DNA of 20,000 bases from Cladosporium halotolerans (lineage: Eukaryota). Position numbers and translations under genes: made by a program. The notes beneath the pieces were generated by a model. The model was not told the DNA's origin, ran no database searches, and saw only the letters and a list, made by a program, of their open reading frames with translations. The stretch lies in assembly GCF_011745625.1 (NCBI RefSeq), contig NW_027191508.1:55444-75443 (forward strand). The letters run 5' to 3'. This document shows, piece by piece, positions 286 to 20,000 of this stretch (position 1 is the stretch's first letter; every line of letters begins with the position of its first letter).

Positions 286-1644
286 TTAATTACTTCGAAA
301 AATCCTTTCCAATTCTCCGCACGCGCGCAGATAATATTCGCGCACGTCACGCGCCGGGTGGAAAGGATTTGGCGCCTTATCCCAGCCATGCGGCACACCC
401 TCAACTAGAATGTAAGAGAGGCGCTTATCAATCTCAGGCGAGAGCAGGCGATCACGGAAGTCCAGGCCCTCAGCCAGCAGCATGTCCCACTCGCAGCAGA
501 GCATGATTATGTCGTTGGGCAAACCCTCTTTCAGCAGTGCCGTTGGCGCGACACCTGGGCTCAGGTAGGGCGACTCAAGTGCAATGGAGTCCGGTGGATA
601 CAAATAGCTTCCGTCGAACAGGTTGGTGAAGAGTGAAGACAGCTCTTGATCTTTCCTGAAGCAGGTCGCGCGCCGCTGTTCGCGAGTCCGCGTGTAATCT
701 ATGCTGGGATACCAGGCGACGACTGCACGGAGAGCAATGGGGAACGGCCCAGTAGATGTGACGTTGTGGGAAGTGGTGGTAGTGTCGGCATTGGGTGGAG
801 AGGAAATATGCTCTGAGAGTTCCAGCGGATCAACGAAGCCGGCATGGCCATTTGGGCTGGCTTTTGTCGGCAACGAGGGATGCGAGATGGAGCTTTGACA
901 CCTTGACTCCGCGTTGAAGCGAGAAGGGTGGTTTTGCTTGGGCAAAGAACCCATCATATAATCATGTAGGCGTAACGATACTGTGAAGGCCATATTGCCA
1001 CCAGAGCTGAAGCCGGATATCGCGATCTTTTCCCTGTCAATCCCAAGGTCCACAGCGTGCTTGTGTACCCAGATTACGGCATCTACGCCGTCTTCCACTG
1101 CATTTGGGAATGGGTATTCCGGCGCAAGACGGTAGCCCACGCTCACGACGACAGCCCCACATTCGTCAGCGACAGTGGTGCACCAGCGAGCATCATCTGT
1201 GGGCGCACCGAGCGTGAAACCTCCGCCGTGAAAGTTGATCACGACAGGATAAGAACACTGTGCTTGAGTGCTTTGAGTGCATGGGCGGGCCGTCTGTGCA
1301 ACTCGTCCGCTGCTGCTTGTCCGCTGGTAGACTGCCTTCCTGATATTACCGGTATCAATGTTTTGTTCATAGTTCCTTATGTCGTTGAAAATTTTACCCT
1401 GTCTCTCGTACTGTGGTGGCACATAGAAGTACAAGTAGATCTGTCCCTGCGTCTTACTAATTGTTGACTGAATGGTCTTCTTGAATGCCGGTTGCCGTGG
1501 GCGGGGAGGCGTGAGCCTTTGAAAGAACATGCCCAGATCCATCAGCACCCGCCAAAACTGTGCTTGTATGTGTAAAACCCATCGTAATCGCGGCATACTT
1601 CTGTCGTCGGGATTGAAACGGGGCTGAGCTTGGCTGCGAAACAT
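286..1644 (-). CDS. Alpha/beta hydrolase, hormone-sensitive-lipase (Abhydrolase_3) family esterase/lipase
   Basis: 452-aa ORF with the HGGG oxyanion motif (VVINFHGGGF), YRLAPEYPFP, nucleophile elbow GFSSGG, candidate acid (CEWDML) and His (VPHGWD). The 5' end is uncertain: the ATG at 1644 lies in a pyrimidine tract followed by CAG, so an upstream exon or a later Met is possible. Confidence 0.9.
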   Translation of the reverse strand: MFRSQAQPRFNPDDRSMPRLRWVLHIQAQFWRVLMDLGMFFQRLTPPRPRQPAFKKTIQSTISKTQGQIYLYFYVPPQYERQGKIFNDIRNYEQNIDTGNIRKAVYQRTSSSGRVAQTARPCTQSTQAQCSYPVVINFHGGGFTLGAPTDDARWCTTVADECGAVVVSVGYRLAPEYPFPNAVEDGVDAVIWVHKHAVDLGIDREKIAISGFSSGGNMAFTVSLRLHDYMMGSLPKQNHPSRFNAESRCQSSISHPSLPTKASPNGHAGFVDPLELSEHISSPPNADTTTTSHNVTSTGPFPIALRAVVAWYPSIDYTRTREQRRATCFRKDQELSSLFTNLFDGSYLYPPDSIALESPYLSPGVAPTALLKEGLPNDIIMLCCEWDMLLAEGLDFRDRLLSPEIDKRLSYILVEGVPHGWDKAPNPFHPARDVREYYLRACGELERIFRSN

Positions 1645-2904
1645 AAAAGGAAGAGAATGAAAGCTTCTTTCCCTTCAGGCTGGCCGCGCTCGTTTTAGTG
1701 CCGCGAGTCTTAGTGTCGGCCTGCCTTATGCAAGAGATCCCCTGTGGCAGTAAGCCTCTTCGGCCGCGGAATAAAAGCAAGACCTGGAAGCCCGGATGCG
1801 ATATCTGTATGCTCCCTCTACCCAACAGCCCTCGTGGCGCGGTTGCCGGCCTTGGTTGCTCCCGAAGACGACGAATCAAGGATGATGTCGAAGACCTCGG
1901 GGTCTGCTGAAGCATGTGTTTCACCTATTGACGAGGCAAGGAGCGCTGTGCCGTGTTGCACTGTAACGCTGAGAGACCATGGAGATACTCGGGAACTTGG
2001 GCGCAAGATAGAGACTAGCGATATGTGATTTCGTTCTAGTGACGCGAGTAGTGAAAAGTGCAAGTCGGAACAAGGAAGGTCTCTTAGAATCGCGAACGCT
2101 TCCTGCGTGCGACAGCCGTGCATCCCTAGCCAGCCGATGCGACATTTGTGCGGAATCCCTGGGCGTTTCGCGGGCTGTTTGCCGACAACGTGAGCCATTT
2201 GCGCGCCTTTCACCTTGGCACACAAATGCCGCGAGCGCCTTCGAAGAACTCGCCTTACGCCGCTGACGTGCGACCACCGTGCTCTGGCATTTCCGCTTCT
2301 CGCTCGCTTTAGAGGGCGCGAATCATGGGTGCATGGTCACCATGCTCCAGAGCTGCATTGCGAGCAGCTGCGCGCGAGTTCGAAATACCGAGAAACTACC
2401 TTGGCCTTTGGCAACATCACGCGCGACCCAGCTTGGCGGATCGATCTTCTACTGCAGCGCCCGCCAGTTCATGCCCGCACGTGAGCTTGAGACAATGACA
2501 CAACCGAGCTCGGCGACCCCCGAAACCGCCAATGGCGGCCGTCGCTCGCTGATTGAAACTGCGAAGAATCCCAAGTCCTAAGCTCACCGGGTGTCGACTG
2601 GCGGCGCGTCAAAGGGTACAAGGCGGCTTGTCATACCAAAAGGCATCCCTGTGATGAAATTTGGTGTGAAAGAGTTGGTTCAGTTGTGTATCTACTGCTG
2701 GGGCCATCCACTGCTTTATACCTTGCGTGGGTCTGTGTCGGTCTGGATCTCTTGTCCGGCAATATTCAACACCCTGGATAGGCAGCACGGCTATCGACTG
2801 TGGAACGAGGACGAGAGTTGTGAATAAGCAGGTTGCTTGTTCATACGATTGGTTCCTGCTCCAATACTGCTGCTTAGAAGGATTGTTGTTGTTTCTTTAT
2901 TTTT

Positions 2905-3669
2905 CTTTATTCAACCATACTGTATTCAAGCTGTATAGCTTATGACAGGCCTGGGCTAAGTCACAGGTATTTCTAGGTCTTCTATCTGTGCTCTCGCCTT
3001 GATCCTTTACCGTACAATCCTGCTCGCCATCCCGCCTTCATCAAGGCGCCACGGCTTTTTGGGCTCAATGCCCTCCTACTTGCTTGTCTTGGTGGTCGCA
3101 ACTGCTGACCTTCATCTCCTTCTCTCTGCCTCGCTCCTCTATTCTCCACGTACCACAGGCTGGACATCTCCAGTGCTGGAGGTGTACGCTGTCTTGTCCA
3201 TGCTGCTTGCCTCCCGGGAAGTGCCTGCCGAGGCCGAGGCACATACCCGTGCTGACTTTCTTGCTGTCCGCCTCTTTCCCTCTCGTGTGCGAGGTACAAG
3301 AAGCTCGTTTTCACTCCCTGCTGACACGTAGCGTCTGCTGTGCTTGCCGTGTTGTCTCCGGCTGGTCGAGCCCATTAGGCGCTCGTGCTGGGCTTTTGTC
3401 CGATGTGACTCATGTCATGACATGAGCCGGTGTTTTGGTCTTTCTGCGCGAGCTGGCGGGCTCATCGCGCTCCAGTGCACTTTGTGCGTCTTCATTCCAA
3501 CTCTTGCTCATCGACAATGTCGGGCGTTTTCGATGGGTAGGTGTCATCGAGTGATGACTTTGTTGCAAGACTGCCACGTGGGATCATCGCTCTTCTGTAG
3601 CGCACTTGATTTCACTGCATAGCAGCTACTCACACCGGACATCACGTGAAGGTGTGCGCTCTCCGTCCG
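2905..3669. repeat. Copy A of a diverged long inverted repeat of unknown nature
   Basis: Collinear reverse-complement matches to copy B: 2918-2932 vs 7311-7325 (14/15), 3017-3031 vs 7209-7223 (15/15), 3265-3278 vs 6900-6913 (14/14), 3496-3512 vs 6684-6700 (17/17), 3627-3669 vs 6405-6447 (41/43). Confidence 0.9.
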
Positions 3670-4171
3670 GCAGGATTGTTGTTACCTAAACGGCATGTAT
3701 TATATATATATGACTGTCATTACCTCAAGTATGAAATAGGGATGACACTGCGCACAAAGCTACTGATCGGAATTGATCAACAACGAGCATGAATTTTGGC
3801 TCTGCAGGCGTTGTCACCATTGATATGTGACCACTTGGCTAGTAAGGCTAAACCCAAGATGGCAGTAGAATTGGTGTCGCGACGATGTCACGCTCACGCG
3901 TAGAACCCGACAAGAGATGGTTTAGAATAAAATATCGGTTCATATGGAACACCGGATCTCAGTAGTGTTGTTTATAGACGTGGAACTCATGCTGACTTCC
4001 CTTTCGGCCTCAACGCGTGAACGCGGCAGTCTCGCGACATCAATACTGCTTCCCCTCTAGGTCTAGCGCTTACTTGCCAAGTGTCGGCATCGACTGAAGT
4101 CAGGTGCTTTCCCAGTGATGTTGTCTTTGTCTTACAGCGACCGGTTTCTGTCGCAGGCCGAGGCACTTTGG

Positions 4172-4645
4172 CAAGCTTGTCAATGGTACGAACACTAAAG
4201 GGTACCCTGTGCGGGTAGAGATTTTCTTAAAGGGTAGGGAATTGAACAAGGAATTTTCTTAACGAACAGTATGACACAACGTAGTACCTCTGGCAAGCCT
4301 GGTTTTGTGCGCGTCCGAGCATGTTTGGTCATAACTTAAATGCCGAATTCGAGCATTGCCCCAACCCCTACCCTGAGGCCATCATGCCGGGGAAAACATT
4401 CGGCCGAGAAATCCACGACGAAGCGCGTCCGGTCGACGCGTACTTCGAGAGAGAGAGAGAGCTGCAGCAGGAGCCTGGAGTACTTTACGATGATGTCGAT
4501 GAGCACTCTAGTATAATATCACGTGATTGCCAAGACTCCCTATGGCACACCCGAACAGCCAAAAGGCTTAACGAACAGCGTTTTTCTTAAAGGGTACGAA
4601 CAGAATAGGGTCCCTTATTGGGTATGCGTACCATTGCCAAGCTTG
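4172..4645. mobile_element. Non-autonomous hAT-type MITE, 474 bp
   Basis: TIRs CAAGCTTGTCAATGGTACG (4172-4190) and CGTACCATTGCCAAGCTTG (4627-4645), 18/19 complementary. Perfect 8-bp TSD CACTTTGG at 4164-4171 and 4646-4653. CA...TG ends. Subterminal motifs TTTTCTTAAAGGGTA and CTTAACGAACAG recur near both ends. Confidence 0.9.
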
Positions 4646-5247
4646 CACTTTGGGAATCCAAGTCGCAGATCGCAGGATTAGCTTGCCAAGACACTAGATC
4701 GAAAGGCCCGGTCTACCAGGCCGCGCGCCTAAACAAGAACAACAACCTATCTACCCACAAATTTATACAAACGAGAGGTGACCCTCTCGTGCAACAGTTT
4801 CTTTCCACACGATGCCTGCTCCGTCCTTGGAGTCGAAGGCTCCGTTAGCAAACAACGTGAATCTGTTGGTCGCTTGACGTTCATCGGTTGGAGCCCGTGG
4901 TTAGGGTCATCTATCCAACCGTCTCTAGAAGCTTCGTCCGTACGCAGTTAGTCGCATGCATTGGTGGAACATACTTTGGAACATCCATGTCAAAGCGAAC
5001 GACATCACTATGAGAATTGAGATACGTGTGACATGCCAAAGGATTTCAACAGTGGTTTCATTTGACTGTTTCCTATTAAGTCAACCATAACTGGAACCCC
5101 CGATCGACCCGGGCCTCCCTGAACGACCGTGCTCGCCCATTTCCACTTCACAAATCCTCCACAGTGTGACTTGGATGTCAACAAGAGGCGGAGGCCTGGT
5201 TGGCTAAAAGATACCTTGCATCGAGATCGAGATTTGGAAGGATTGGT

Positions 5248-5509
5248 TTACTTGCACTGGATGTCAGGGTCAGCTAGCTAGACTCGCGAAGACTGAAACC
5301 CAACAGCCGCTACCATCAAGGTAGCTGGCCATCGAGGTAGCCGTCCATCAAGGTAGCCGTCCATCAAGGTAGCCGTCCATCAAGGTAGCTCTTGGTAACC
5401 ATCAAAATATAAAAAGGGGGTTATGGTGACATACACCGCAAGAGGTGCATCCGCACTTTCCATTGCAACCGTTCCCGCCACAGCAGGTCTTGCATTCGCA
5501 GCTTGCCAT
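5248..5509 (-). CDS. Short fungal metallothionein, 27 aa, two exons: MASCECKTCCGGNGCNGKCGCTSCGCK
   Basis: Exon 1 is 5509-5435 and is followed by a canonical GTATGT donor. The 178-nt intron has CTGAC branch-like motifs and a CAG acceptor ending at 5257. Exon 2 is 5256-5248 (TGC AAG TAA). 9 Cys in 27 aa with CxC and CC motifs and no aromatic residues, like Neurospora/Magnaporthe-type short MTs. Confidence 0.85.
5313..5389. repeat. 16-bp minisatellite, about 4.8 copies, in the metallothionein intron
   Basis: Units of CCATCAAGGTAGCCGT start at 5313, 5329, 5345, 5361 and 5377 (last one partial), with few substitutions. Confidence 0.95.
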
Positions 5510-6404
5510 CTTATTGGAGGTCGGATTCGATTTGTGCCTGAAAATTAAGAAGCTTTCTAAATAATATTCGGCTTTTCTCTGTGAAGGTACGATAAAATTT
5601 CTTTCAGGTAAGAACACGAGCTCCTACTTGTACTCTTCGACTGGATGCTGAAATGGCAGAGCTGGGCTGAGCTCACGATGACGCCCATCGTGTCTGCGGG
5701 GTGCTTTCGTCACTCACTTGGCGCAGAGGATTCGTCATACCGGGTTCTCGCGGTCGATACTGGATCATACTGGACGATGGTTATTCCTATGACCCAGCAG
5801 CATGTGCGGGGTTGGCCACGCTAGGACAGCTCCATGAAAGCTGCCAATCACGATTGGCGGAGTGGCATGTTCAGCCGTCGCGCCCAATGAATATGCCAGC
5901 AAGAGGTGGGGTCGACATATTCCGATAGATTCCGTGCATACTTGTGCTAATACCAGAACATAGGGCTTCCGCCTTTTCACAAAGGATAACGTTAAGCGCT
6001 AGAAAACATGCAGACGGAGCTCGCGTATCACGAACGTGGAGACACCGTACGCCCCGCATTTTAGAAATCCAGGCGCCTGCCTATTGCTTTTTTTGGATGG
6101 GAACGGGATCACCGCCGCGCGCGACCTTGGTGTTTGAGCACTTGGTCCTGGCATCCGAACTTACGTAGCCTGCTCCTTCCCGCACAATGGTGCGAGCCAC
6201 CCAAGCACTTTCAGCCGCGATAATCTGGTTTCCTGGATAAAGCTGACCTCTTTTTGACTGTAACATTGTCAACCAACTTAGAGAGGTGTTGCGTAATGGC
6301 CAGGTTATATTCAAGATCTGTGACTGGGAATGAGTCTACAACCTCGGCGTCTTTGCCCTATAGAGTGAGAAGAGACAGGCTTCTTCTCCATTTGAACGGC
6401 GTGG

Positions 6405-7325
6405 CGGACGGAGAACGCACACCTTCACGTGATGTCTGGTGTGAGTAACTGTAAACGCAGTGAAACCAAGATGCGCTCAAAAACAGTCAGAAGCGATGAG
6501 CCACAAGGCAGTTTCGCAACGAGTGATCACTTGACGACCTAGCCCCAGCGACGACGCCCGAGACGGCCGCCGTCCACCCGTCGGAAGAGTTGACACGACA
6601 CGACCAAGCCTGCGCGCACCGCACGCCAACAAGCAATACGCCCACTGCCGCCGACGCGGCCGCCAATGCGACTCAACATCCATGATGAGCAAGAGTTGGA
6701 CAACGCGCACAACAAGCACACGAGCATTGTAGCTCTCGAAGGAAGATCCATATGTAGGCTCGCAAACGAGGCGAGTCCCCAGATAAACACCCTGTCCCCA
6801 TGGGCTCGCCCAGTCTAATACAACACGACAAGCATGCCAGGCGCGGCACGCCAGCACCTACAACCACAGTCGAGTCCTTATACCTCGCACATGGGTTGAG
6901 AAAGAGGCGGACAACAAGTAACACACCGAGGGAAGGCAGCTGCTTTATGTAAGCACCCCCTCACCAGACGCGCATGCTAGCACGTTCTTTAACCGAGCAC
7001 ACGACGATAAGCCTCGCACAGCCCAGGTTGCGGCAAAAAGGGTAACGCCTGTGTCTCTTATACGAGCAAGAGGCGCCAGAGAGAGAGACAAGACAGCACA
7101 GTTTTTCAGTATCGGAGGCCGCCGGCCTGTGACGCAGGAGAGAGGAAGAGAAGCGGAGAGGAGGAGAGGAGGGCACCGAGCCCAAAAGCCGTGGCTTGGC
7201 CAAGCCGAGATGGCGAGCAGGATAGCATGGAGTGATAAAGCAGGAGCTAAGATGGAAGATCAAGAAAATGTCTGCAAATCACCAAGCCTGGGATAAGGCT
7301 TAAACCAAATAGCTTGAATGCAGTA
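6405..7325. repeat. Copy B of the diverged long inverted repeat, interrupted at its outer end by the pogo insertion
   Basis: Matches listed under copy A. It carries an extra ~120-bp GC-rich segment (~6563-6683). Homology runs to the TA at 7324-7325 and may resume after the transposon (TGAATAAAG 11622-11630 is the reverse complement of CTTTATTCA 2905-2913). Confidence 0.88.
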
Positions 7326-7483
7326 GAAGTCTTCCCTGACTCGTGCACATCCCTGGCTCGTGCACACTGCTTTCACATCATGACCATCACCTTCGCAGCA
7401 CTACATCTCGATGTAAACACATTCGCTTGAAGTGCCAAATAGCTCGTTGCAGCCGTGGTAGGTTTCTCTGTAATTCTATATAC

Positions 7484-7848
7484 TTAGATATCATCAAAGA
7501 ACCTTGGTCGCTTGACAGCCCTGCCAGTTCTTGACCTCGGCTGTTCTGGCACTATTTCAGCTTCTGGCTCAGTAGCAACTGCGACAGGTTCTTCAGACTG
7601 TTTCCGCTTCACCGGCCTTCCTCTTGGTCGTTTACTGGAGGCCCTAGACTTTGTTCGAAGTTGTTCCACACCCTTTTTAGCTAGCCTGTCACGCTCCTTT
7701 TGGGCCTTGTCAAGAGCCTTCTTGGTCTTCCTTGCGGCAGCTTTGATAGCTCTATCCTCGCGCTTCTGCTGAGCCTCCAACTCCCTGTGAGCCTTAAGCT
7801 GAGCTCTATCTTGGGCTTGGAGCAATCGATCGAGCGCCTCGTCGTCTT
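7484..7848 (-). pseudogene. Outer transposase, displaced C-terminal part
   Basis: Removing 7851-9989 and one TA joins ...AREFA to KDDEALDRLLQ...RPRFFDDI* in frame: 1528 + 365 = 1893 nt, a 630-aa ORF. Confidence 0.9.
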
Positions 7849-7850
7849 TA

Positions 7851-9989
7851 GAAGCTTTCCCCACCTCAGGCACGTCCACACCTCAGGCACGCTTGACGGG
7901 CCCGGTGTCGAGGAGCTTCCACTACTTGTATCTCACACATCAACAACTCAATCCAGCTGAAAACATATCATCAAGAAGCTACAGTACCACTCTACAAGTC
8001 TGCAACAAATTTATGTTCTGAACCGGGCTGGTCGGCGCACTGGCCGGCCTTTCGCCGTGGTCGCCTGCTCTACAGGCTCAATGACTACTGGCTCTCGTAG
8101 AGTGTTTGAAACACTCTCAGCAGCTGGTTGTTTCTTTGAGAAGCTTTGCAGTCGCCTGCTCGCAGCCCTCGATTTCATGTCATTCAGTTTCTGAGCTTTC
8201 CTAGCCTCTCGTGACGCCTGTGCTGCGGCCTTCTTCTGGGCTGCAGCTGTCTTGCGAGCAAAAGCAGCTGCAGCTCGTTCATCTCGTTTCCTCTGCGCCT
8301 CTACCTCCTTCTGCGCCTTCTTCTCAGCTCGTTCTTGAGCCCTGACCTCTTTTTCTTGCTGCGACTTCTCCTTCTCTCGCTCTCTGCTCGATGCAATGTC
8401 TCGCGTCTTCTGGATTTTGGAAGGGCTCATGAACAGCGTCCCAGATGGGCCAGAGGCCCTTAACTCGTCTATAACCTTCCTCTTCCTCTTCTTCCGCTTT
8501 TCCTCTTCGTGAATAGGCCCACTTAACTGCTTCACCTTCAGATTTGATAACACAAGCTTGGCCGAGAGTCCGAGCACCGTGTCGCTGAGCCTCTCCAGCG
8601 TCTTCTGCGTCTTGTTGTCGCTGTGTGCCGAGCTGCCGCTGAGGATACTTCTTAACCTCTTTGTCTTCGAAGGCGAATCGTATATGCTCGGTGGACTGTC
8701 GCTCCATCGTTGCGTGCTTCGCTGAGACCTAGTCTCAGCTTCCTGAGCCGCAGGGAAGGATTTGAGCACTTTCTGAGGATCGAAAGGCCAGATCCCGGTC
8801 TTCGACCAAGCTGATGCTATGTTCTTCTTCGTAAAGGCCTTCTCGAAGGCTGGCAGAAAAGTGAGAAGAAGTCTCGTTTGCTGATGCTCGTGTGGCCTTC
8901 TGACTTCCTGACCAAGTCATCGAGCGCCTGGCTGTAGTAATTGGCCAGTGGGGCAAAGACGCTCACATCTAGAGGCTGCAGCCTGTGTGTAGAGTGCGGC
9001 GGGTAGACAGCAAGTAGGATCTTGTGCTGCTCGCACCAGTTGAGGAACTTCATGTTGACGTGTGAGCCGTGCCCATCAACGAATAAGAGCCTGTGAGATC
9101 GTCTCGCTTTGGACGACGTCTCCTTCTCAAACAGGCCAGTCAGCCAGCTGTAACCAAGATCGTCGCTCGTCCACCCATTAGGCGATGAGGCGAAGTGGCA
9201 CTCGTGTTCCTCCGGCTCGAAGTCGTTGAGCCACGTGTCTTGCAAATTACCAGAGATCGCTTTGTAGATTAGAGCTGGCGACAACTTGGTACCGTCTGCG
9301 CAGATCGTGGCCACAACAGTGATCCACTCTCTGCTACCGTCTTGGCCTGCTTTTGCGAGGCCTCCTCGCTCGTACAGCTCTCGCGCGAAGATCCTTCGGG
9401 TCTTTTGCAGCTTGCCGATGAGAAAGCCCTTCTCGTCCATGTTGTATATATTGTCACCACTTATCTTGTATTCTTCTACTTTCTGACCAACGATGGCGAA
9501 ATAGTCCTCACAGCTACTTCTGGAGTCAGCTTTGTGGCGTGCGAGGTCGATTGTGTTGAGATATCGGGCATCAAGCCTGTGCTTGTGTCTTGCGACGAAA
9601 CGCGAGGACCAGTTCTTGGAAAGCTTCCTCCCACATAGTTCTTGGGCGATATTGGCGACAATTTTGGGTGTAGGTGGAAGACAACGCTCGCAAAAGTGAT
9701 GTATGTAGTTTACAAGCTCTTCTTCTTGCTTATCGTTGAGCATTCTCTGAGACTCGTAGCCCCGAGCTCTTGAGGAGGTTTTTGCATGAACACGCTTGCT
9801 AAGCGCGGATCTGGTAAGCCCGTGCTTTTGCGCGACATCAGATATCTTCAGGCCATCAGAAGACCTTAATTCTGCAAGCGCTATGTCCATTGAGTCGCGG
9901 CCGTTGAGATATCACGTAGAGAAGAGGGCGCGTTCGTGTCGCGTCGAGCGTGCCTGAGGTGTGGACGTGCTTGAGGTAGGGAAAGCTTC
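7851..9989 (-). mobile_element. pogo/Fot1-family DNA transposon (inner nested element), 2139 bp
   Basis: 48-bp TIRs 7851-7898 and 9942-9989 (45/48), with CACCTCAGGCACG repeated at 17-bp period. TA TSD at 7849-7850 and 9990-9991. Confidence 0.95.
8011..9890 (-). pseudogene. Inner pogo/Fot1 transposase with a single 1-bp frameshift
   Basis: ORFs 8817-9890 and 8011-8769 join if one base is restored at ~8854 (TTC TG- CCA GCC TTC GAG AAG, i.e. F[W]PAFEKAF, against FYPAFDKAF in the outer element). DD35D motifs are intact. The repaired ORF is 626 aa. Confidence 0.9.
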
Positions 9990-11517
9990 TAGCGAATTCC
10001 CGAGCTGCTGCAAGCTCTCTAGCTCGAACTACCTTGGAAGGGCTAAAGAACAGCACACCAAGGCCTTCACCTGCTCTGAGCTGCTTGGTGAATGCGCTAC
10101 CACGTTTCCTCTTCTTCTTCTCGCAATCGATAGATTGAAGAAGGCCTTGCTCACGCTCTTCTGCCAGCTGTGCTCGGGGAGAAGCTCCCAGGTAGGCATC
10201 GCCGAGCAGTCTGATCGTCCTGTCCTTCTTAGCCCCATCAGCAGCCACACTTCGATCCACAATCCTCCTTACCCTTCTAGTGGCTCTCGGCGAATCGAGG
10301 CAACTACTTCCGAGGCTCTCGGAGGGTGCGGACGCTGATGACTCGTCCAATACTTCGCCTGCCTCCTTGTCGAAGATCTTCAGCACCTGAGCTGGATCCC
10401 ATGGCTCTATGCCGGTCTTGCGCCATGCCGACCGGATGTTCTCTTCCGTGAAGGCCTTGTCAAATGCTGGGTAGAAGATGGTGAAGAAGTCTCGCTTACT
10501 TACGCTCGATAGGCCTAGAGACTGTCTGGTATGAGCATCCAGAGCTTGGCTGTAATAAGTGGCGAGTGGGTTGAACAGACTGACGTCCAAGGGCTGCAAC
10601 CTATGAGTCGAGTGAGGAGGATAGATAGCAACCAAGATCCTACGTTTGTGACACAAGTCAAGGAAGTCCAGAGTGCAATGCGAGCCATGGCCATCGAGCA
10701 TGAGCAGCCTCCAGTCTCTTTTAGCCTTGTCTGAAGTCTGAGGATCGAAGAGGCTCTGTAACCAGCTCAAAGCGAGCTCGTCACTTGTCCATCCGTTGGG
10801 CGAGCTGGCAAACCAACAAGGGTGCTCTTCCGTCTCATAGTCTTGAAGCCAAGTATCTTGGAGATTACCACTAACAGCCTTGTAGATCAGAGCAGGCGGC
10901 AGTGAGCTGCCATCGGCACATATGGTCGCTACAAGGGTAATCCAGTGTCGAGCTCCATCTTGACCGGTGCCTAGAAGCTTTTGAGTCTTCATAAGAGCCT
11001 TTGGGAAAATCCTCTTGACCTTCTGCAGATGGCCGATGAGAAAGCCCTTCTCGTCCATGTTGTAGCAATTATGAGGCTGTATGTCATACTGGATGATCTT
11101 CTCCTCCAAGATAGCAAAGTACTGCCTGTACGAATGCTCTGAGTCGGCTTTGTGCCTCTCGAGGTCTATGGTGCTGAGATATTTGCAGTCAAGCTCATCC
11201 TTGTGTCGGACGCGGAAAGCGGCAACCCAGTTTTTGCCAGGCTCTGTACCACACAAAGCAGCAGCCCAAGCCCTCACCATTGATGGTGTAGGGGGAAGGC
11301 ACCACTCGGATAGTCTGTTAATCTGTTTAACAAGCATAACTTCTTGTTTGTGCGTTAGCAATTGCTGTGTTTGGTAGCCTTGGGCTGTGGAGCGCGTCTT
11401 GCCGCGGAACCGCTTGCTAAGGGTACTTCTGTTGATATTGTACTTTGTAGCTGCTTCAGAGATATTTTCAGATTCAGAGGATCTTAGAAACGCGATCGCC
11501 TTATCGATAGAAGCCAT
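9990..11517 (-). pseudogene. Outer pogo/Fot1 transposase, N-terminal part (HTH, CENP-B-like HTH, DDE_1 domain), interrupted by the nested element
   Basis: ATG at 11517 (MASIDKAIAFLRS). Catalytic motifs YNMDEKG, LDGHGSH and QPLDVS give DD35D spacing. The reading frame runs on through the inner TIR to a stop at 9856. Confidence 0.93.
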
Positions 11518-11710
11518 GGTTGTGAAGATGTCGCGTGTTGAAGCGCGTTGTTGTCGGGCTTCGAAAGTGTGCACGAGTCAGGGATGTGCACGAGCCAGGG
11601 AAGACGTCTAAGCTGGAACTATGAATAAAGGTCTCAATTTCGCGTTGAAAAACGACTCAGGTATTTTCTACTGCTACCTTCCTAAAAGTAATCGAAGCAC
11701 TACCGCAATC

Positions 11711-11770
11711 ATGCCGGAAGACCCAATTCAGAAACTCAAGAAGATAGGCATCGTGGGCGCCGGTAGTATG
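11711..11770 (+). pseudogene. 5' stub of a Rossmann-fold NAD(P)-binding dehydrogenase (possibly 6-phosphogluconate dehydrogenase-like), truncated by an LTR
   Basis: ATG in good context (GCAATCATG) encoding MPEDPIQKLKKIGIVGAGSM, which is a beta strand plus GxGxx[G]. The motif is cut exactly at the LTR's TGTCAC. The family assignment rests on 20 aa only. Confidence 0.6.
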
Positions 11771-11986
11771 TGTCACGGGCGGACGTCGGGGCGTAGGTAT
11801 AGATGCAAACAGGGATAGATACGAATCACTACGACTAACCTACAGACAGGTTATATGACTAGGACGTAGCTCGAAGAGCTACGAATGAGGTTCTGAGCGG
11901 AGTTCTCAGGTGAAGCCGACTGTCGGCACACCTGCCATCATACAAACAGCGACCCTATAGGCATGTCACAGGCTCGGCCCGTGACA
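11771..11986 (-). mobile_element. Solo LTR, 216 bp, from a Ty3/gypsy family related to the element at 15333
   Basis: TGTCACGGG...CCCGTGACA terminal inverted repeat. Shares TGTCACGGGCG, CGTAGGTATAG and the 22-mer AGGACGTAGCTCGAAGAGCTAC (11861-11882 vs 15442-15463) with the LTR at 15333-15567. The flanks GTATG and CCCAT do not match. Confidence 0.9.
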
Positions 11987-12566
11987 CCCATCCTGGATTC
12001 AGCGCAGACGCCTGCAGAGTTCTCTCACAGCTTGCGGGAGCTTGAAGTCCTCGCGAGAGTCACTGAGCTCAGGCAAAGTGAACAATTTGTCTGATATACG
12101 CGCCCTCTCCTTTTTAGACAGCCTGCTGTGCTTCTCCTGAGGTGGGTGCGAGCATTGTCTGGCTAGACGCGATCAGGGTGTTCAGCAAACAAACAGATGC
12201 CTGATTTTACAGTTTGGCAAACAACGCCTTACTATAACAGGAGGCAATATTAGATGTCGCGAAAATTCGCGTACACGCGCCTTTTCGCGTATATACCACT
12301 GACGACTCCCAAACCAAGATGCAAACATGGAAAAGGGTTTTGTGATAATGCTAGACCACCGTTCAATATTATCAGCTGAGGCGAAAAAATATTGTTGATG
12401 AATATGTGTTTCTGGACCCTTTGCCAAGCTGTTTGTCAAACAGAATTTGTAAGGCATCTGTTTGTTTGTTTGTTTGATGATCACCCTGGACGCGATGGTG
12501 ACATGCCTTGAAAAGCGCAACGTGATGCTCCGGTAAGTGTGCAAAGTAGTCGGTAGCGGTAGCTAT
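11987..12566 (-). pseudogene. Degenerate 5' remnant of an OrsD/DUF3505-like C2H2-type gene, split by a MITE and cut by the solo LTR
   Basis: After removing the MITE and one TSD it reads (ATA)ATATDYFAHLPEHHVALFKACHHRV*PDNARTHL, then a 1-nt frameshift, then QEKHSRLSKKERARISDKLFTLPELSDSREDFKLPQAVRELCRRLR*IQDG. This resembles the F.HLPE..V..C..C...VWP.....HL..KH pattern recalled for that family; not confirmed by search. Confidence 0.55.
12174..12488. mobile_element. Non-autonomous hAT-type MITE, 315 bp
   Basis: Ends CAGGGTG...CACCCTG. The imperfect inverted repeats extend ~50-60 bp (CAAACAAACAGATGCCT vs AGGCATCTGTTTGTTTG). Perfect 8-bp TSD GACGCGAT at 12166-12173 and 12489-12496. Confidence 0.92.
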
Positions 12567-13324: not shown

Positions 13325-14386
13325 TTACCACGCAGTGTGCCCGCCGTCAACTATCAGGTTGCTGCCGGTCATAAAGGACGATGCGTTGCTGAGCAGGAAG
13401 AGTGCGGCGCCCTTGAACTCTGAGGGATCAGCCAATCTCCCCATCATATTCTCAGCTTCCCACTCTTCTTGCAGGCCAGGCGTTGCCTCTAGCTCCTTTT
13501 TAACCATCGGTGTTATGGCATGACCAGGGCTCAATGCGTTGACGCGGATGCCGCCCTCCCCACTGGACTGCACTTTGCTCCATTCCATTGAGAGGTTTTT
13601 CGCTAGTTGAATGACAGCCGCTTTAGTGGCATTGTACACAGGCGACAGCATGCCTTTATTTGCAATTAGCCCGCTCATGCTGGCGACCAGACACATGCTA
13701 CCGCGGCTGCGGTACTTGAACATCTGCCGGGCGCACGCATTCGCTGTTTCCAGCACGCCAATGAAGTTGGTGTCGAGCATGCGCCGGACGTCTTGCTCTT
13801 TGTATTCGATCGAGGGGCAGACTTGCAGGATGCCCGCAGCTGCTATCAGGCCGTCCAGCCGTTGCTTCTCGTCTGCGATGCTTGCCACTGCGGCGTTGAC
13901 TTCGTCTACCTTGCTGATATCAACGCGGCGGTAGTGGAGGGTGCCAGTGCCTGGTTCACGTCGCAGCTGCTCGTTTGCGACTGCAAATTCTTCATCCGGC
14001 TGCTTGTTGCGATCGAAGCAGTAGACCTCGCCGCCGGCCTCGGCCAGTGATTCGGCCATGGCAAGGCCCAGACCACGCGCACCTCCGGTGGTAATATACA
14101 CGCGATTGGACAGGTCGAACAGTGTCGATGTCTGTTTAGCAAGGTTGTCGGTGTGGGGTCTCTGCATTGGAAGAGCATCGTCAGAACGACTGGGTGGTTG
14201 GCTATTGAATAGTGGCTCAGGGGCTCCTTTGGAAAGTTTCTGGGGTTGCGCATTGGACTCACGTCGAGAGAACGAAGCGTAGGAGAACGGGGAGTTGTTG
14301 CGAATTGGAGTGCTATGAAAGCTGCGTTTCAGAATTTGAGAGCGGTCCAGATTGCGAGCTAGTTGTTTTTGAATTGTGGACTGCAT
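13325..14386 (-). CDS. Short-chain dehydrogenase/reductase (sorbose reductase / D-arabinitol 2-dehydrogenase-like) with a probable mitochondrial presequence
   Basis: 353-aa ORF with TGGARGLG, AAAG, catalytic S (VASMSG), YNATK, IRVNALSPG and C-terminal LIVDGGHTAW. The N-terminus is R/S/K-rich and includes KRSFHST. Confidence 0.92.
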   Translation of the reverse strand: MQSTIQKQLARNLDRSQILKRSFHSTPIRNNSPFSYASFSRRESNAQPQKLSKGAPEPLFNSQPPSRSDDALPMQRPHTDNLAKQTSTLFDLSNRVYITTGGARGLGLAMAESLAEAGGEVYCFDRNKQPDEEFAVANEQLRREPGTGTLHYRRVDISKVDEVNAAVASIADEKQRLDGLIAAAGILQVCPSIEYKEQDVRRMLDTNFIGVLETANACARQMFKYRSRGSMCLVASMSGLIANKGMLSPVYNATKAAVIQLAKNLSMEWSKVQSSGEGGIRVNALSPGHAITPMVKKELEATPGLQEEWEAENMMGRLADPSEFKGAALFLLSNASSFMTGSNLIVDGGHTAW

Positions 14387-14869: not shown

Positions 14870-15332
14870 ATGGCGCGTCAGAATAAGCGGAAAGAAGCCC
14901 TCTTTCAACCACATATCTTATATAAAGAGAATACTACACCAGAGCCGAGTGATCGCGATCTAAACACAAAACACGAATGGGACACGCCTACGCGTGCACG
15001 CGTCCTCACGCTTCGAGAGGCCGGATCCTCACGCCCTGTCATCAAAAAGAAAACTGGCGTGCCTATCTCAACTCAGGAGTCATGGAGACCTGGTGAATAC
15101 CGAAGACCTGGCCAAAAACGACCTGGTGCTGCTAAAAAGCTCTCTAATACCTGCCTTCGTACGATCATCCGTTATCTCAGCAAATCCTTCGAAGCACGGC
15201 AATCAACATGGCGGCAGCTCGCAAAAGACTATGGTGGTGGTTGTACAGCTACAACAGTGAAGAACAGCTTAAATGCATTAGGATACCACAAATGCAAGGC
15301 CTGTCAAATGACCTGGCTCTTAGATGACAATA
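14870..15332 (+). pseudogene. Tc1/mariner-like transposase N-terminal DNA-binding region, interrupted by the retrotransposon
   Basis: HEWDTPTRARV...KKTGVPIST HTH, RPGAAKKLS linker (GRP-like), second HTH ending TVKNSLNALGYHKCKACQ. The ORF runs directly into the LTR at 15333. No catalytic domain or partner TIR is in the window. Confidence 0.72.
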
Positions 15333-15567
15333 TGTCACGGGCGCGAGGCAGTGTGTGCAGTACGTAGGTATAGTTGCCAATCAGATCGGATACAGAGCTA
15401 TGTACGGTCTCGGTCGCAACCCGGTGGATGCTTGGATGACGAGGACGTAGCTCGAAGAGCTACAAACACATGGGAAAGGAGAAGCGCATGTAAAGCCGGA
15501 GCCCGGCTTACCTGCCTTCTCAAGCATTATGAGCAATGTCACGGGATCCGGGATTCCGACCGTGACA
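15333..15567 (-). repeat. 3' LTR, 235 bp
   Basis: TGTCACGG...CCGTGACA ends, directly adjacent to the PPT. The outer 5-bp flank CAATA (15328-15332) is the predicted TSD. Confidence 0.92.
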
Positions 15568-15642: not shown

Positions 15643-18600
15643 TCATCGAACGAAAGGCGGTACAGGACGGTCGCGATACCTGCGGTGGAAATCGCGGACG
15701 AGCTGCGGTACGTCTTCGTATATCATACGCGCAGGTTCCAGGGTGGGATCGTCGTAACCAGTCCAGCGGATGAGATACTTGTAACCTCTAACTTTTCGGC
15801 GGCAATCTTGGACTTCCGCGACATCGTGTGCAGGACTTCCATCTATAAACACAGGTGGTGGTGGTTCTTGTAGCTGACCAGGTAGCGGATCGTCCGCTGC
15901 GAGATACAACTGATCCACATTGAAGACAGGGTGGATTCGCATCGAGTCAGGCAGATCAAGTCGGTATGTGTATGGTCCTAACACTTCGGCAATTCGGAAC
16001 GGGCCAACGCTCTTCCAGTCGAGCTTCTTGCGCGGACGGAGTGTTTTCAAATTCTTTGCGGACAACCAGACCTTCTGGTCGACTGAGAAGCTCGGAGCTG
16101 TGACGCGGGATTTGTTTGAAGCGTCTTCGTACCGGGCCTGGGCTAGAACGGTCTGCTCACGAAGGTGCTCGAGGATTGCAGACATATGGTCGGCGAAAGC
16201 GGACGCTTGTCGGGCTGCAGGTGCGTCGATCGGCTCGACCGGCTCAACACCCAACCGTGGGTGGAAGCCATAGTTTGCAAAGAATGGGGACATTCCTGTC
16301 GTTTCAGAAAACAGTGAATTTGCGGAGAACTCGGCTAACGGGAGCCAGTCTACCCAGTCATCTTGTAGGTACGACACGTAAGCACGAAGATGTTGTTCCA
16401 AAACAGCATTCATTCGTTCGGTCTGGCCATCACCTTCAGGGCGATGAGCGACAGTCATCTTCGTAGATAGCTGAAGGCGTTTCGAAAGGTGATCCCAGAA
16501 ATTGTTCACAAAGCGTATGTCTCGGTCAGATACGACAGAAGCTGGAGCGCCGTGCAGGCGGTAGATCTCGCGGACGAAGATCCTGGCGACGTCTTCGGCA
16601 TTGCTAGTCATGAGACAGGGAACGTAATGGCGCATTTTCGTAAGTCTGTCTACAACGACGAGAACCGCGTCGTAACCGTTCGACGACGGCAAGTGCGTGA
16701 TGAAATCCACAGAGATGTGTTGCCACGACCTTTCTGGAACTGGGAGCGGCTGTAACAGGCCTTGGTGTCGGTCGTGACGTGCTTTGATCCGGCCACAAGT
16801 TCGGCAGTTCAGAACGTATTGACGAACGTCGGTGCTCATCCCTTTCCAGCAGTAGTTGCGCGACAACAGTTCGAACGTCTTCGCTCTTCCAGGGTGGCCT
16901 GCAGAAGGGTTGTCATGGTACTGTCGGATTATCTTCACTCGGAGGTCTTCAAACTCGGGAACGTAGATCTTATCTCGATAGTACAGGAGTCGGTTTTCGT
17001 GTCGACATTGAGCCAGCTGCAAAAACGGGTGTCTAGTCTTACCCTGCTCCAGCGCTCGGAGCACTGATACTACGTTTTCGTCTTCCAGAGACCCTTTCTG
17101 TAGCAGTCGTTCGATCTCCGGGATGTCGTTCGGAACAGGGTCAGGAGTCATAGCGTTGAACAATACCACGTCGGCGAGATCCTTCGTGAACCGCACGTTC
17201 TTTGGTTCTTTAAACCGTACTGTCTTTTGTTGGTCTGTCGATGTCGATTGTCTCGGTTCCGGGGTTGTTGGTGGGGTCAGCGGCACTGCTTGGTCTTCAA
17301 AATTTTCTTTCTTTAGCACGATACGGCTCTGGTGTTGGAGGCGTTCATCCCCTTCCTTAGGCAAATCTTCTGACCTCCTGGCCAGAGCGTCGGGCTTCTC
17401 GCCCTGTTTTCCTGGTCGGTAGATGATTCGGAAGTTGTAGCGTGACAGGAACTCGGACCAGCGAGCTTGACGCCTGTTAAGCATCTTCGTCGACATGAAG
17501 TATTCCAGATTCCTGTGATCTGTAAGAACGCGGACGGGTGTCTCGGTTCCCTCGAGTTCCGGACGCCATTCCTCAAGGCATCGGATGATTGCGAGGAGTT
17601 CTTTGTCGTAGATCTCATAATTGCATTAAACCGCAGAGTGCTTCTTCGAAAAGAAGGCAACGGGACGTAGGATCCCTTCATCGTCATACTGGGACAGCAC
17701 TCCAGCGGAGACAAAGTCGGAGGCATCGGTTTCTAAAATCGCTTCTTTAGTCCAGTCGAACGGCTTCAGGATAGGAGCAGAGGCAACAGTGGCCTTGAGC
17801 TTCTCGAAAGCATCTTGGCATTCCACAGACCAGTTGAACTTGGCGTTCTTCTTCGTCAAGTCGATCAAAGGGGTGACGATCTTCGAGTAGTCTCGGATGA
17901 AGCGGCGGTAGAAATTGCAGAATCCGTTGAATCGGAGGACGTCGGTAGCGTTGCTCGGAGTATTCCAGTCCAAGATCGTCTTGACCTTATCTGGGTCCAT
18001 CTTAAAGCCATCTCTACCTACAATCAGGCCTAAGAACTTCGTCTCTTCAACGAAAAACTCGCACTTGGATAGCTTCGCGTACAGGCCAGCTCGTCGGAGT
18101 CGCTCTAAGACCTGGCGAACGTGTTCTAGGTGTTCTTCTTTCGTCTTGCTGTAGATCAGGATGTCGTCAAGGTACGCGGAACAAAAGCGGTCAAGATACT
18201 CGCGAAGAGCATCGTTGATGAACCTTTGGAACGTAGCAGGAGCGCCAGTCAGCCCGAACGGCATAACCAGAGACTCAAACAGTCCGAACCGAGTCAGAAA
18301 CGCAGTGAACTTCTCATGTCCCTCTTTCATCCGAACATTGTTGAAAGCGGAGATGATGTCGATCTTCGTGAAGTACTTCATACCGTTCAGGTTGTTCAGC
18401 GTCTCCTTGATCAGCGGTAGAGGGTAGCGGTCTTTCACAGAAATCTCATTTAGGGCGCGGAAGTCCATACAGAGCCTCAGGCCTCCTCCAGGTTTTTTGA
18501 CAAAGAGGACTGGCGAGGTGACAGGTGACGAACTTGGCCGTATGAACCCTTTCCTCAGATTTTCATCCAGCCAGTTCCGGAGAGTCTGGAGTTCTTCGCG

Positions 18601-19503
18601 AGACATCGAATATATCCTTCCGAACGGGAGTCTCTTATCGGATGTCAGACGGATCTCGTGATCGTACGAGCGGTGCGGCGGCAGCTTATCTGCCTTCTTC
18701 GGCGAGAAGACGTCCGCGAAATCGCGGAGTGCCTCGGGGAGCTGTAGTGCAAGTTCTTCGCCTTCTTGCTGTAAGGCAGTATCGATGTCCTCGAGTGTGA
18801 CCATGCACATCTGATAGCCACGTCTAGCATAAGCCCTGCAAGCGTTCAAGCTAACTCGAGCAATATCCCGGTGGTTCAGCTCGGGGATATACCGCTTAGG
18901 AACGTCCTTGAGCGTTTTCTGTCGTGTCGGGTGTCTCGTCGTGTTACAGTTCTGTAAGCAGTACGGGTCGCTAAACTCCCACGAGCCGTCGGCCCAGTTT
19001 GTGCGTGGGTTGTGTTTCTTCAGCCAGGGGTGTCCCAGGACAATCGGGTAGTGCGATAACGGCGTAGCATACAGGACGACGTCCTTATCCACGTGATCTC
19101 CGTTCTTGATATCACAGCGAACGTATTCGCGTACCGTGCGGGAGTCTCTTTCTTCGCCGTCATAACCGTAGAGAGAGAAGGGTCGGGAAACTGCGCGTAG
19201 GGCCAGTCCTACAGATTTAGCGTATTCTCGGTCGATAAAGGCATATCCTTCGCAGCCAGAGTCTACGAGAGCACAAGTGAGTTCGGTCTTTCGGTCTTGA
19301 ACGACTGAAACGCTCAAGATCGGAGCAGAAGTACGGGTGAACTCCTTTTCGATAGGAATTCCATGAATTGCCACATTCGAGATTCGAAGGGGCTTACCGG
19401 GAGGGAGGTCAGTTCGAGTGGTCAATCGAAGTGCAGGTCGGGAGATCCGTGCGTTTTGTCTTACTGCCTGGATACGGCTTCCTCCAGGCGAAGGCCGTTT
19501 TCC
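15643..19503 (-). pseudogene. pol: pol polyprotein with one in-frame nonsense codon in RNase H
   Basis: Protease ALVDSG, RT YLDD, RNase H ETDASD...HSAV*CNYEIYDKELLAI (TAA at 17626-17628), integrase HHCC (HDNPSAGH...CRTC), SVDF/SDRD/GQTE core, GPF module, and chromodomain YKYLIRWTGYDDPTLEP. ORFs 17626-19425 and 15643-17496 are in the same frame. Confidence 0.95.
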
Positions 19504-20000
19504 GAATCGCTATCGAGGTTGGCGGCGTAAGCAGGAGTCGGAGGACGAACGGGCGTAGGGGCATGGATCTGTGAGGGAAGACGACCAGGATCCGGCGAGT
19601 GGGAGGTGGGAGACGGGCTTCGGACACCTAGCGATTGCATACGCCATTTACGAGCATCGCTGTCGCGTCGCTGAATTCCAGGAGGTCGTTTGTCAGGTTC
19701 CGGGCAATCCCTCACGCGGTGTCCCCATCGGTGGCAACGGAAGCAGGTGCCAGACTCCTTATCTGTGTAGCGGCGGTTGGTGCTGAGATCCATCGGTTCT
19801 CCTTGCAAGGTCTTCGGTGCCGAGCGCATAGTAGTAGCATAGGTAACAGGAGTGGGCGACATACCAGATCCAGGGGTATCCGCCGTCGCAGGTGTGGGGT
19901 ACCGAGCAGTTGCAACAGCGCTGTACGCTTTCGACGGCGTAGTAGGTTGATGAGTCTGGAAGTGCCGACGGCGGCGATTATCGAGATCTTGTAGGTGGCG
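19461..20000 (-). CDS. gag: gag, C-terminal part (partial)
   Basis: The frame is open from the window edge to TAA at 19461-19463. It has an EPMDLS motif and the CCHC knuckle [14 protein letters not shown]. Confidence 0.92.
19466..19503 (-). other. Candidate -1 programmed ribosomal frameshift signal (gag-pol)
   Basis: pol is in the -1 frame and is open from here. Minus strand reads G GAA AAC (19503-19497), a 7-nt spacer, then the stem-loop GCCTGGA-N10-TCCAGGC. Confidence 0.7.

Follow-up and report, generated by a model that had tools for sequence, protein, structure and literature searches.

In this study we analysed a stretch of Cladosporium halotolerans DNA of 20,000 nucleotides (nt), positions 55,444 to 75,443 of contig NW_027191508.1, hereafter called the window. 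Between positions 2879 and 11631 it holds two arms of non-coding DNA that are reverse complements of each other. Between the arms lie a small metallothionein gene and a miniature inverted-repeat transposable element (MITE), as a sequence-only reading of the window had correctly stated. That reading left two explanations for the arms, either a dispersed non-coding element that landed twice or the old arms of a mobile unit with the metallothionein gene as its cargo. Here we argue that the arms are independent insertions of one retroposon without long terminal repeats (LTRs), and that its 5' head is predicted to be a self-cleaving ribozyme of the hepatitis delta virus (HDV) class. We put the probability of this statement as a whole at about 0.65. 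The features on which the argument is built are the following.

2891-3671, minus strand (sense; 5' end at 3671): left arm, a 781-nt non-coding copy of the probable retroposon, delimited by its target-site duplication (TSD), A-rich tail, contig depth and loose contig ends
2879-2890, no strand: TSD copy adjoining the 3' end of the left element, plus-strand sequence AGGATTGTTGTT, identical to 3672-3683
3672-3683, no strand: TSD copy adjoining the 5' end of the left element, identical to 2879-2890
3599-3671, minus strand: head of the left element (nt 1-73), predicted to form a self-cleaving ribozyme of the HDV class, from a sub-threshold match to Rfam RF02682, a descriptor and a manual fit
6403-7325, plus strand (sense): right arm, main part, a diverged copy of the same family, from the alignment with the left arm and RNA contig X2 record 10
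11611-11631, plus strand: right arm, 3' end past a transposon, ending ...GAATAAAGG and aligning with the tail of the left element

The arms form a collinear, non-coding inverted repeat

Positions 2905-3672 and 6402-7325 are reverse complements in collinear order. A repeat search returned eight inverted blocks, likewise collinear, between 2918-3672 and 6402-7325; the longest and best of these joined 3623-3672 to 6402-6451 (50 nt, 92% complementary). Sensitive self-comparison with blastn gave minus-strand matches of 3520-3672 with 6561-6402 (78% over 164, E 1.5e-24), of 2970-3077 with 7267-7167 (75%, E 5.7e-11) and of 3257-3375 with 6921-6800 (70%, E 4.4e-6). When one arm was aligned globally with the reverse complement of the other the score was 368, compared with 63 ± 12 (maximum 94) for 50 shuffles. 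With the ends of the arms redefined as described below, 561 of 717 aligned positions were identical in an alignment of 1008 columns. The arms are diverged and rich in indels, and conservation along them is patchy; it peaks at the inner ends, where 52 of the first 60 columns were identical. We ascribe this peak to the inner ends being the 5' heads of the elements, which we read as a predicted ribozyme. The collinear arrangement and the strong conservation of the inner ends had both been described in the sequence-only reading and were confirmed here.

No reading frame was common to both arms; matches in a six-frame blastp comparison jumped from frame to frame, in agreement with the earlier observation. 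For an open stretch of 130 amino acids in the left arm a single weak database match was found among 18 candidates (45% identity, E 9e-12). Given the lack of a shared frame and this single weak match, we rejected the interpretation of the arms as a decayed gene. The Rfam comparison that had been proposed earlier gave zero matches at gathering thresholds across the whole window, and ARAGORN found 0 tRNA genes in it. We concluded that the inverted repeat is real, collinear and non-coding.

The left arm is a discrete insertion

The interval 2000-12500 of the window was compared with four public sequencing runs in the form of assembled contigs. Judged from contig sizes and depth patterns, X1 is DNA and X2 is RNA of the window's organism, and X4 and X5 are DNA of two other organisms; that of X4 is a related one, and the organism of X5 is the more distant and is called organism C.

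A perfect 12-nt direct repeat sits exactly at both limits of the left-arm homology. The earlier statement that a TSD was missing therefore does not hold for the left arm on its own. The 3' end of the left arm (approx. 2891-2912) is an A-rich tail that contains two AATAAA motifs and reads ...GAATAAAGAAAAATAAAGAAAC, and the sense strand is 61% purine. By repeat search and inspection neither terminal inverted repeats (TIRs) nor LTR-type ends were detected on the left arm.

One X4 DNA contig joined position 2891 to 16 letters corresponding to 3685-3700 with one mismatch, and then continued from 3703. This contig is an unfilled site, without the left arm and with one copy of the 12-mer. Its depth was 4.26, and X4 contigs of neighbouring unique sequence had depths of 3.2-3.5. 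In the same run record 19 spanned 6287-6536 with 0 differences, showing the inner junction of the right arm to be present. The search for an empty site that had been suggested for the pair of arms was thus successful for the left arm, and the inner junction of the right arm was still in place. We concluded that the left arm is a discrete insertion with its own TSD and A-rich tail.

Just outside the left-arm tail, at 2652-2890, extra X1 DNA depth was observed (92 in bin 2351-2701). Diverged look-alike contigs beside the tail had loose ends at 2748 (X1) and at 2652 (X4). Another low-copy repeat may be present here, with the left retroposon inserted in or next to it.

The right arm is an older copy split by a transposon

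The sequence-only reading let the right arm end at 7325. This is not the case, since the arm resumes at 11611 on the far side of a pogo-type transposon and stops near 11631. When the outer pogo element was removed, the right arm ran on for 21 nt to 11631, and in the alignment it ended in the same ...GAATAAAG as the left tail. The X1 depth over the right arm was 32-74, which is little excess and is expected of an old, diverged copy. We concluded that the right copy is older than the left one and was later split by the pogo-type transposon.

The left-arm sequence belongs to a family with a common 5' end

At position 3583 one and the same variant was found in six X1 contigs and in four contigs each of X2, X4 and X5. 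The summed X1 contig depth over the left arm was 245-345 compared with 31-46 in nearby unique bins; a summed contig depth is not a copy number. Three X2 and two X4 contigs had loose ends at exactly 3671, beyond which they continued into sequences unlike each other (agreement 0.52 and 0.67). The T that precedes the first base of the element, G1 (3671), was not found in other copies, as the loose-end consensus begins with G on the plus strand at 3672. The left-arm sequence is therefore multi-copy, with a fixed common 5' end at 3671.

Taking both arms together, we consider it very probable that they are independent insertions of one short, non-coding and non-autonomous family of non-LTR retroposons with a size of about 0.8-0.95 kb. 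The left copy has the perfect 12-nt TSD and the empty-site contig, and the element has an A-rich 3' end and neither TIRs, LTRs nor an open reading frame (ORF). The first option of the sequence-only reading, a dispersed non-coding element that landed twice, is thereby supported by the left TSD and tail, by the empty-site contig and by the further copies. The head-to-head layout around the metallothionein gene is best taken as a coincidence in a transposon-rich stretch.

A 20-nt motif from the head was also used to scan metagenomes and was found in one contig, which on reading was judged to be an unrelated chance match. A head pattern independent of helix P1 gave 0 matches in collections of prokaryote or virus contigs, and such collections say little here.

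The 5' head is a predicted HDV-class ribozyme

In an E-value scan of 2850-7400 the best Rfam match was RF02682 on 3613-3671, minus strand, with 19.4 bits over model positions 1-74. The match spans the full model and begins at the first base of the element. Other sub-threshold Rfam matches (TCV_H5, DLEU2_4, sR30, DUF3085, RT-2, sR18 and TB9Cs4H2) were treated as chance. The numbering used below starts with G1 at 3671, and the fit beyond the Rfam match was made by hand on two copies.

According to this fit P1 is formed by nt 1-7 with 32-38 (3671-3665 with 3640-3634) and P2 by nt 12-18 with 67-73 (3660-3654 with 3605-3599), in each case with 7 of 7 base pairs (bp) in the left copy. The right copy has one mismatch in P1 and one in P2. 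P3, in the Rfam register, consists of nt 19-21 with 29-31 and reads A-U, C.A and C-G in both copies. Loop L3 is UUCACGU, which carries the G conserved in this loop, and 5 of its 7 positions match the consensus of the RF02682 model. A P1.1 of one pair is possible (C24-G39). P4 is a 5-bp stem (nt 46-50 with 54-58) on an AGUA/GAA internal loop that is closed by G41.U63. In comparison with the loop-E consensus this internal loop is loop-E-like, with AGUA at nt 42-45 (3630-3627) opposite GAA at nt 59-61 (3613-3611) in both copies. The candidate catalytic C is C64 (3608), located 3 nt ahead of the P2' strand and kept in the right copy. P1' comes directly after P3, and P4 sits between the P1' and P2' strands, an order that fits the nested double pseudoknot of the class.

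The predicted cleavage site is 5' of G1, the first base of the element, and the pair at this site is G1.U38 in both copies. The DNA copies thus start at the first base of the predicted cleavage product, as seen from the loose ends at 3671 and from the TSD. Across the two copies 44 of 48 cells paired, compared with 15-40% when the partners were slid by 1-3 columns. Four differences between the copies keep the pairing (G-C to G.U, G.U to A-U, C-G to U.G and G.U to G-C), and two differences break pairs, both in the right copy. A strict descriptor in which the loop-E-like motif was required found a single site in the 40 kb of the window (both strands) and 0 matches in 25 dinucleotide shuffles, both strands (approx. 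1 Mb).

On this model the left copy carries an intact predicted ribozyme fold and the right copy is decayed. The right-arm head (6403-6477) has the P1 mismatch at pair 2-37, the P2 mismatch at 13-74 and one inserted A. Record 10 of the X2 RNA contigs matches 5962-6802 with 0 differences and runs uninterrupted across the right-arm inner junction; contigs carry no strand information for transcription. These mismatches and the contig crossing the junction fit a dead ribozyme, which is not proof of it. We call the ribozyme likely rather than shown, because it rests on a sub-threshold Rfam match, a manual fit and two copies.

Several observations weigh against the reading of the arms as ribozyme-headed retroposon insertions. 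Concerning the insertions, the flanks of the empty-site contig depart from the window at 2 of approx. 17 positions and in the length of a TA repeat, and the contig could represent a paralogous rather than an orthologous or allelic site. X5 record 27 covers 3643-4071 and ends 29 nt inside the left arm, suggesting that organism C has the left insertion; we therefore claim the insertion and make no claim on its age or recency. The TSD candidate of the right arm (6385-6401 with 11632-11645) was not significant, as 416 of 2000 shuffles scored as well. In Pfam scans of long ORFs no partner long interspersed nuclear element (LINE) was found, and the sole reverse transcriptase within the window is of the Ty3/gypsy type.

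Concerning the ribozyme, the 19.4 bits of the RF02682 match are far under the gathering score of 44 (E 2.6 on 4.5 kb and 0.076 on 131 nt), and for the right arm Rfam gave no HDV match at E <= 10. In both copies P3 is interrupted by a C.A mismatch at its middle pair. HDV and CPEB3 ribozymes have 4 nt after the catalytic C, and the 3-nt junction after the candidate catalytic C is one shorter than in these classical ribozymes. Compensatory double changes were seen in 0 pairs, in a comparison of only two copies from which the structure had itself been derived. The strict descriptor was composed after the sequence had been seen. A loose descriptor without loop E was not enriched (18 sites in the window, shuffle mean 18.4) and was dropped as evidence. 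The nested minimum free energy was no better than in shuffles (z = 0.05 left, 0.61 right), a measure that is uninformative for pseudoknots. The G.U cleavage pair of the element agrees with the general HDV consensus, and in the published description the fungal HDV variants typically have C-G (PMC5640933). The assignment to that fungal class is tentative, being judged from the same description.

Other explanations for the arms

Among the other explanations the one that survives best accepts two retroposon copies and takes the 5' head as an internal promoter or protein-binding site instead of a ribozyme. A CACGTG E-box (3643-3648 and 6426-6431), for example, could have been kept so that transcription starts at the first base of the element. 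This palindrome lies within a 21-nt block identical between the copies, and the sub-threshold Rfam match, the P3 mismatch in both copies and the lack of a thermodynamic signal are all compatible with such a role. In L1Tc the same 77 nt are described as both promoter and ribozyme (PMC3383444), so that a promoter role is plausible in itself. A promoter alone leaves unexplained P1 and P2, of 7 bp each, in nested-pseudoknot order, the loop-E-like motif on a 5-bp stem with the four pair-preserving differences between the copies, and the 0 matches of the strict descriptor in the shuffled sequence. We consider it unlikely, with a probability of roughly one in five.

An inverted segmental duplication of regulatory DNA or of non-coding RNA, such as duplicated promoters or a pair of long non-coding RNA (lncRNA) genes, would account for the patchy conservation and for the X2 RNA contigs over both arms (depth 98-424). 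It would also agree with the right arm being transcribed from its own locus, as seen in X2 record 10. Transposition is instead indicated by the TSD and the A-rich tail, by the empty-site contig and by the copies with different flanks, and the homology ends sharply at the TSD, which makes a duplication very improbable.

LTR elements leave a TSD of 4-6 nt. Solo LTRs of a decayed LTR retrotransposon family would have the size of the arms (0.8-0.9 kb), both copies begin with TG one base upstream of G1, and a Ty3/gypsy element is present at 15643-20000. The 12-nt TSD, the missing ...CA end and the A-rich 3' end do not agree with solo LTRs, and the T before G1 is not common to the other copies; we give this explanation even less credit than the duplication.

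Least credible of all is the second option of the sequence-only reading, arms as TIRs of an old foldback or Pack-type DNA transposon that moved the metallothionein gene: the inverted arms do surround a small cargo, but we rejected the idea because there is no TSD around the pair, the left arm alone has a perfect TSD, the empty-site contig lacks the left arm only and X4 keeps the right inner junction intact, the outer ends are A-rich tails and not transposase-binding termini, and left-arm type sequence occurs in several contigs with different flanks at 3671.

Comparison with known ribozymes and retroposons

Marks of the HDV class are a P3 of 3 bp, a conserved G in L3, a P1.1 located between L3 and J1/4, a catalytic C in J4/2 immediately ahead of the P2' strand, and self-cleavage at the foot of P1 that leaves 2',3'-cyclic phosphate and 5'-OH ends. 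Ribozymes of the HDV class have the order P1-P2-P3-P3'-P1'-P4-P4'-P2' with a P1 of approx. 7 bp, whose 3' strand follows directly after P3/L3, and some R2 ribozymes also have a disrupted P3 or P1.1 (PMC3774820). Li and Breaker (2017, BMC Genomics 18:785, PMC5640933) described 230 variant HDV ribozymes from 26 fungal species, which violate the criteria of earlier searches, and demonstrated cleavage for two representatives, from P. chrysogenum and A. niger. Unpublished laboratory data on a sequence of P. chrysogenum with a fold compatible with HDV are mentioned in PMC3185411. According to PMC5640933 these variants typically have C-G at the cleavage site, a loop E takes the place of part of P4, and P2 and P3 are separated by one extra nucleotide, which is mostly C. 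They are described there with 'widely variable gene associations' and without an assigned role, and in the main text 'transpos' and 'repeat' occur 0 times.

The head of the Cladosporium element resembles these variants in its predicted nested double pseudoknot and in the loop-E-like loop (AGUA/GAA) in the lower P4. Its C18 would be either the extra C, if P2 has 6 bp, or part of a seventh P2 pair (C18-G67), as judged from two copies. The host is again a filamentous ascomycete and the adjoining genes are unrelated. Unlike the variants as presented in PMC5640933, without biological context, the head here forms the first 73 nt of a probable retroposon with a TSD.

In R2, RTE, baggins, L1Tc and the truncated NARTc a ribozyme cuts the element out of a co-transcript, and the cleavage site becomes the start of the DNA copy (PMC6765202, PMC3774820, PMC3383444, PMC5814959, PMC3414825). 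Like NARTc/L1Tc of Trypanosoma cruzi and the non-autonomous elements derived from R2 (PMC3383444, PMC3185411, PMC3414825), the present element is a short non-LTR element without an ORF and with a predicted HDV-like head; the short members of that group are truncated or internally deleted forms of autonomous elements. It differs from them in belonging to another host kingdom, and the likeness described here is one of architecture. R2 is site-specific for ribosomal DNA, whereas the Cladosporium element is dispersed. The sequence-only reading had called the element undescribed, which is only partly right: the ribozyme type has been published for fungi, and ribozyme-headed retroposons are known from animals and trypanosomes. 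Full-text searches, whose scope left out most subscription journals and Repbase reports, returned no paper in which a retroposon of fungi is headed by a fungal HDV-type ribozyme.

With the HDV-like ribozyme of Faecalibacterium prausnitzii (RF02682) the head aligns in P1, P3 and L3 along the whole model. The P4 region and the 3' part align poorly, and RF02682 is a bacterial RNA upstream of glmM that does not belong to a mobile element. Fungal short interspersed nuclear elements (SINEs) and SINE-like retroposons such as Mg-SINE, Foxy and Eg-R1 are short, non-coding and dispersed; they have variable TSDs and an A-rich 3' end, and LINEs are presumed to mobilise them. Unlike these, the Cladosporium element has no tRNA-, 5S- or 7SL-like head, as judged from the ARAGORN result and from Rfam at gathering thresholds. 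Compared with most SINEs transcribed by RNA polymerase III (Pol III) it is longer (approx. 0.8 kb), with a ribozyme-like head rather than a Pol III promoter.

Proposed mechanism

We propose that the element would be transcribed within a longer read-through RNA; a promoter of its own could not be demonstrated. Read-through transcription is suggested because X2 contigs of other copies continue upstream of 3671 and because record 10 enters the right arm. X2 cover in the RNA bin 3755-4105 was almost nil (0.46), and no X2 contig joined the metallothionein transcript to the left arm, which is not evidence against read-through. In the resulting RNA the head ribozyme would cut directly 5' of G1 and so set the 5' end of the element. 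The reverse transcriptase of a putative LINE partner would then copy the RNA at a staggered nick by target-primed reverse transcription, leaving the 12-nt TSD.

The metallothionein gene and the MITE

Between the arms two features were found that are not part of the element.

5041-5620, minus strand: metallothionein gene, coding sequence 5509-5435 and 5256-5248, 27 amino acids with 10 Cys, intron 5434-5257
4171-4646, no strand: MITE-like insertion with 25-nt TIRs, from the repeat search

The metallothionein intron was confirmed by an X2 RNA joint 5256->5435 (CT..AC) with a depth of 17326, and a poly-T loose end in X2 places the poly(A) site near 5041. X2 depth in the metallothionein bins was 31675-39766 compared with tens to hundreds elsewhere. 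The product is Cys-rich and copper-metallothionein-like. The intron contains tandem 16-nt units, with four overlapping 32-nt copies at 16-nt spacing (5313-5392).

The MITE-like element has internal direct repeats (4182-4236 and 4577-4614). It was missing from X5 contigs (joint 4143->4797) and from a second X1 contig, in which 4146 was joined to 4830 with 29 other letters. For the stretch 4146-5917 a second version is present in X1 at similar depth. The variants at 4917, 5916 and 5917 were found in one contig at a depth of approx. 36 of 63-66 (X1), and the same variants were present in organism C (X5). The second version could be a duplicated segment, a second haplotype or the result of a mixed culture.

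Transposon-rich surroundings

Genes and elements of the window were typed by Pfam scans of long ORFs, and the window is transposon-rich fungal DNA. The features outside the element were as follows.

7326-11608, minus strand: nested pogo/Fot1-type DNA transposons splitting the right arm, from TIRs (repeat search) and Pfam domains
286-1644, minus strand: alpha/beta-hydrolase gene, from Pfam
13325-14386, minus strand: short-chain dehydrogenase, from Pfam; its closest named relative is a Cladosporium halotolerans protein (86% identity), which marks the host as a Cladosporium-like dothideomycete
15643-20000 and beyond the window end, minus strand: Ty3/gypsy pol with integrase, chromodomain, reverse transcriptase, RNase H and gag zinc knuckle

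The outer pogo element has 45-nt TIRs (7324-7368 and 11566-11610) and a TA duplication (7324-7325 and 11609-11610), and abuts the right arm at 7325. The inner one (7849-9991) has 50-nt TIRs (7849-7898 and 9942-9991). The pogo ORFs 8817-9890 and 9856-11574 contain the Pfam domains DDE_1, HTH_Tnp_Tc5 and HTH_psq. The two pogo/Fot1-type transposons are approx. 2.1 kb each and approx. 66% alike over 8792-9446 and 10409-11064. In one X1 contig 7369 is joined to 11504, suggesting that TIR-only deletion derivatives of pogo elements exist elsewhere in the genome.

A short plus-strand ORF starting MPEDPIQKLKKIGIVGAGSM lies at 11711-11770, next to the right-arm tail. It resembles the N-terminus of a Rossmann-type dinucleotide-binding protein and leads into a GT intron-like site, past which no evident continuation was found, and it may be a gene remnant. 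A 31-nt repeat is common to 11855-11885 and 15436-15466. At 12168-12494 an inverted-repeat pair of 28 nt at 86% is accompanied by a perfect 17-nt pair, spaced approx. 270 nt, and this pair may be a second MITE. A Tc1-type HTH fragment (14870-15367) lies beside the Ty3/gypsy pol.

Implications

For annotation, copies of the element should be masked as a repeat family and not be taken as lncRNA genes or regulatory palindromes. A composite transposon that mobilises a metal-resistance gene was an attractive reading of this locus but a wrong one, and it is replaced by a reading that can be tested. Such elements would rely on read-through from neighbouring genes, and insertions beside highly expressed genes such as that for metallothionein may inform on transcription, and also on genome plasticity in Cladosporium-like moulds.

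More tentatively, and with somewhat less than even confidence, we suggest that the fungal variant HDV ribozymes in general are the 5' heads of widespread promoter-less non-LTR retroposons in Pezizomycotina. If this is true, such elements ride read-through transcripts as passengers and cut themselves free, and the element described here would be a first anatomically defined example, with a TSD, a tail, an empty site and a 5' end at the predicted cleavage site. Confirmation of the ribozyme head would assign the fungal HDV-variant ribozymes a biological role, a question left open at the time of their description, and would extend ribozyme-processed retroposons from animals and trypanosomes to fungi.

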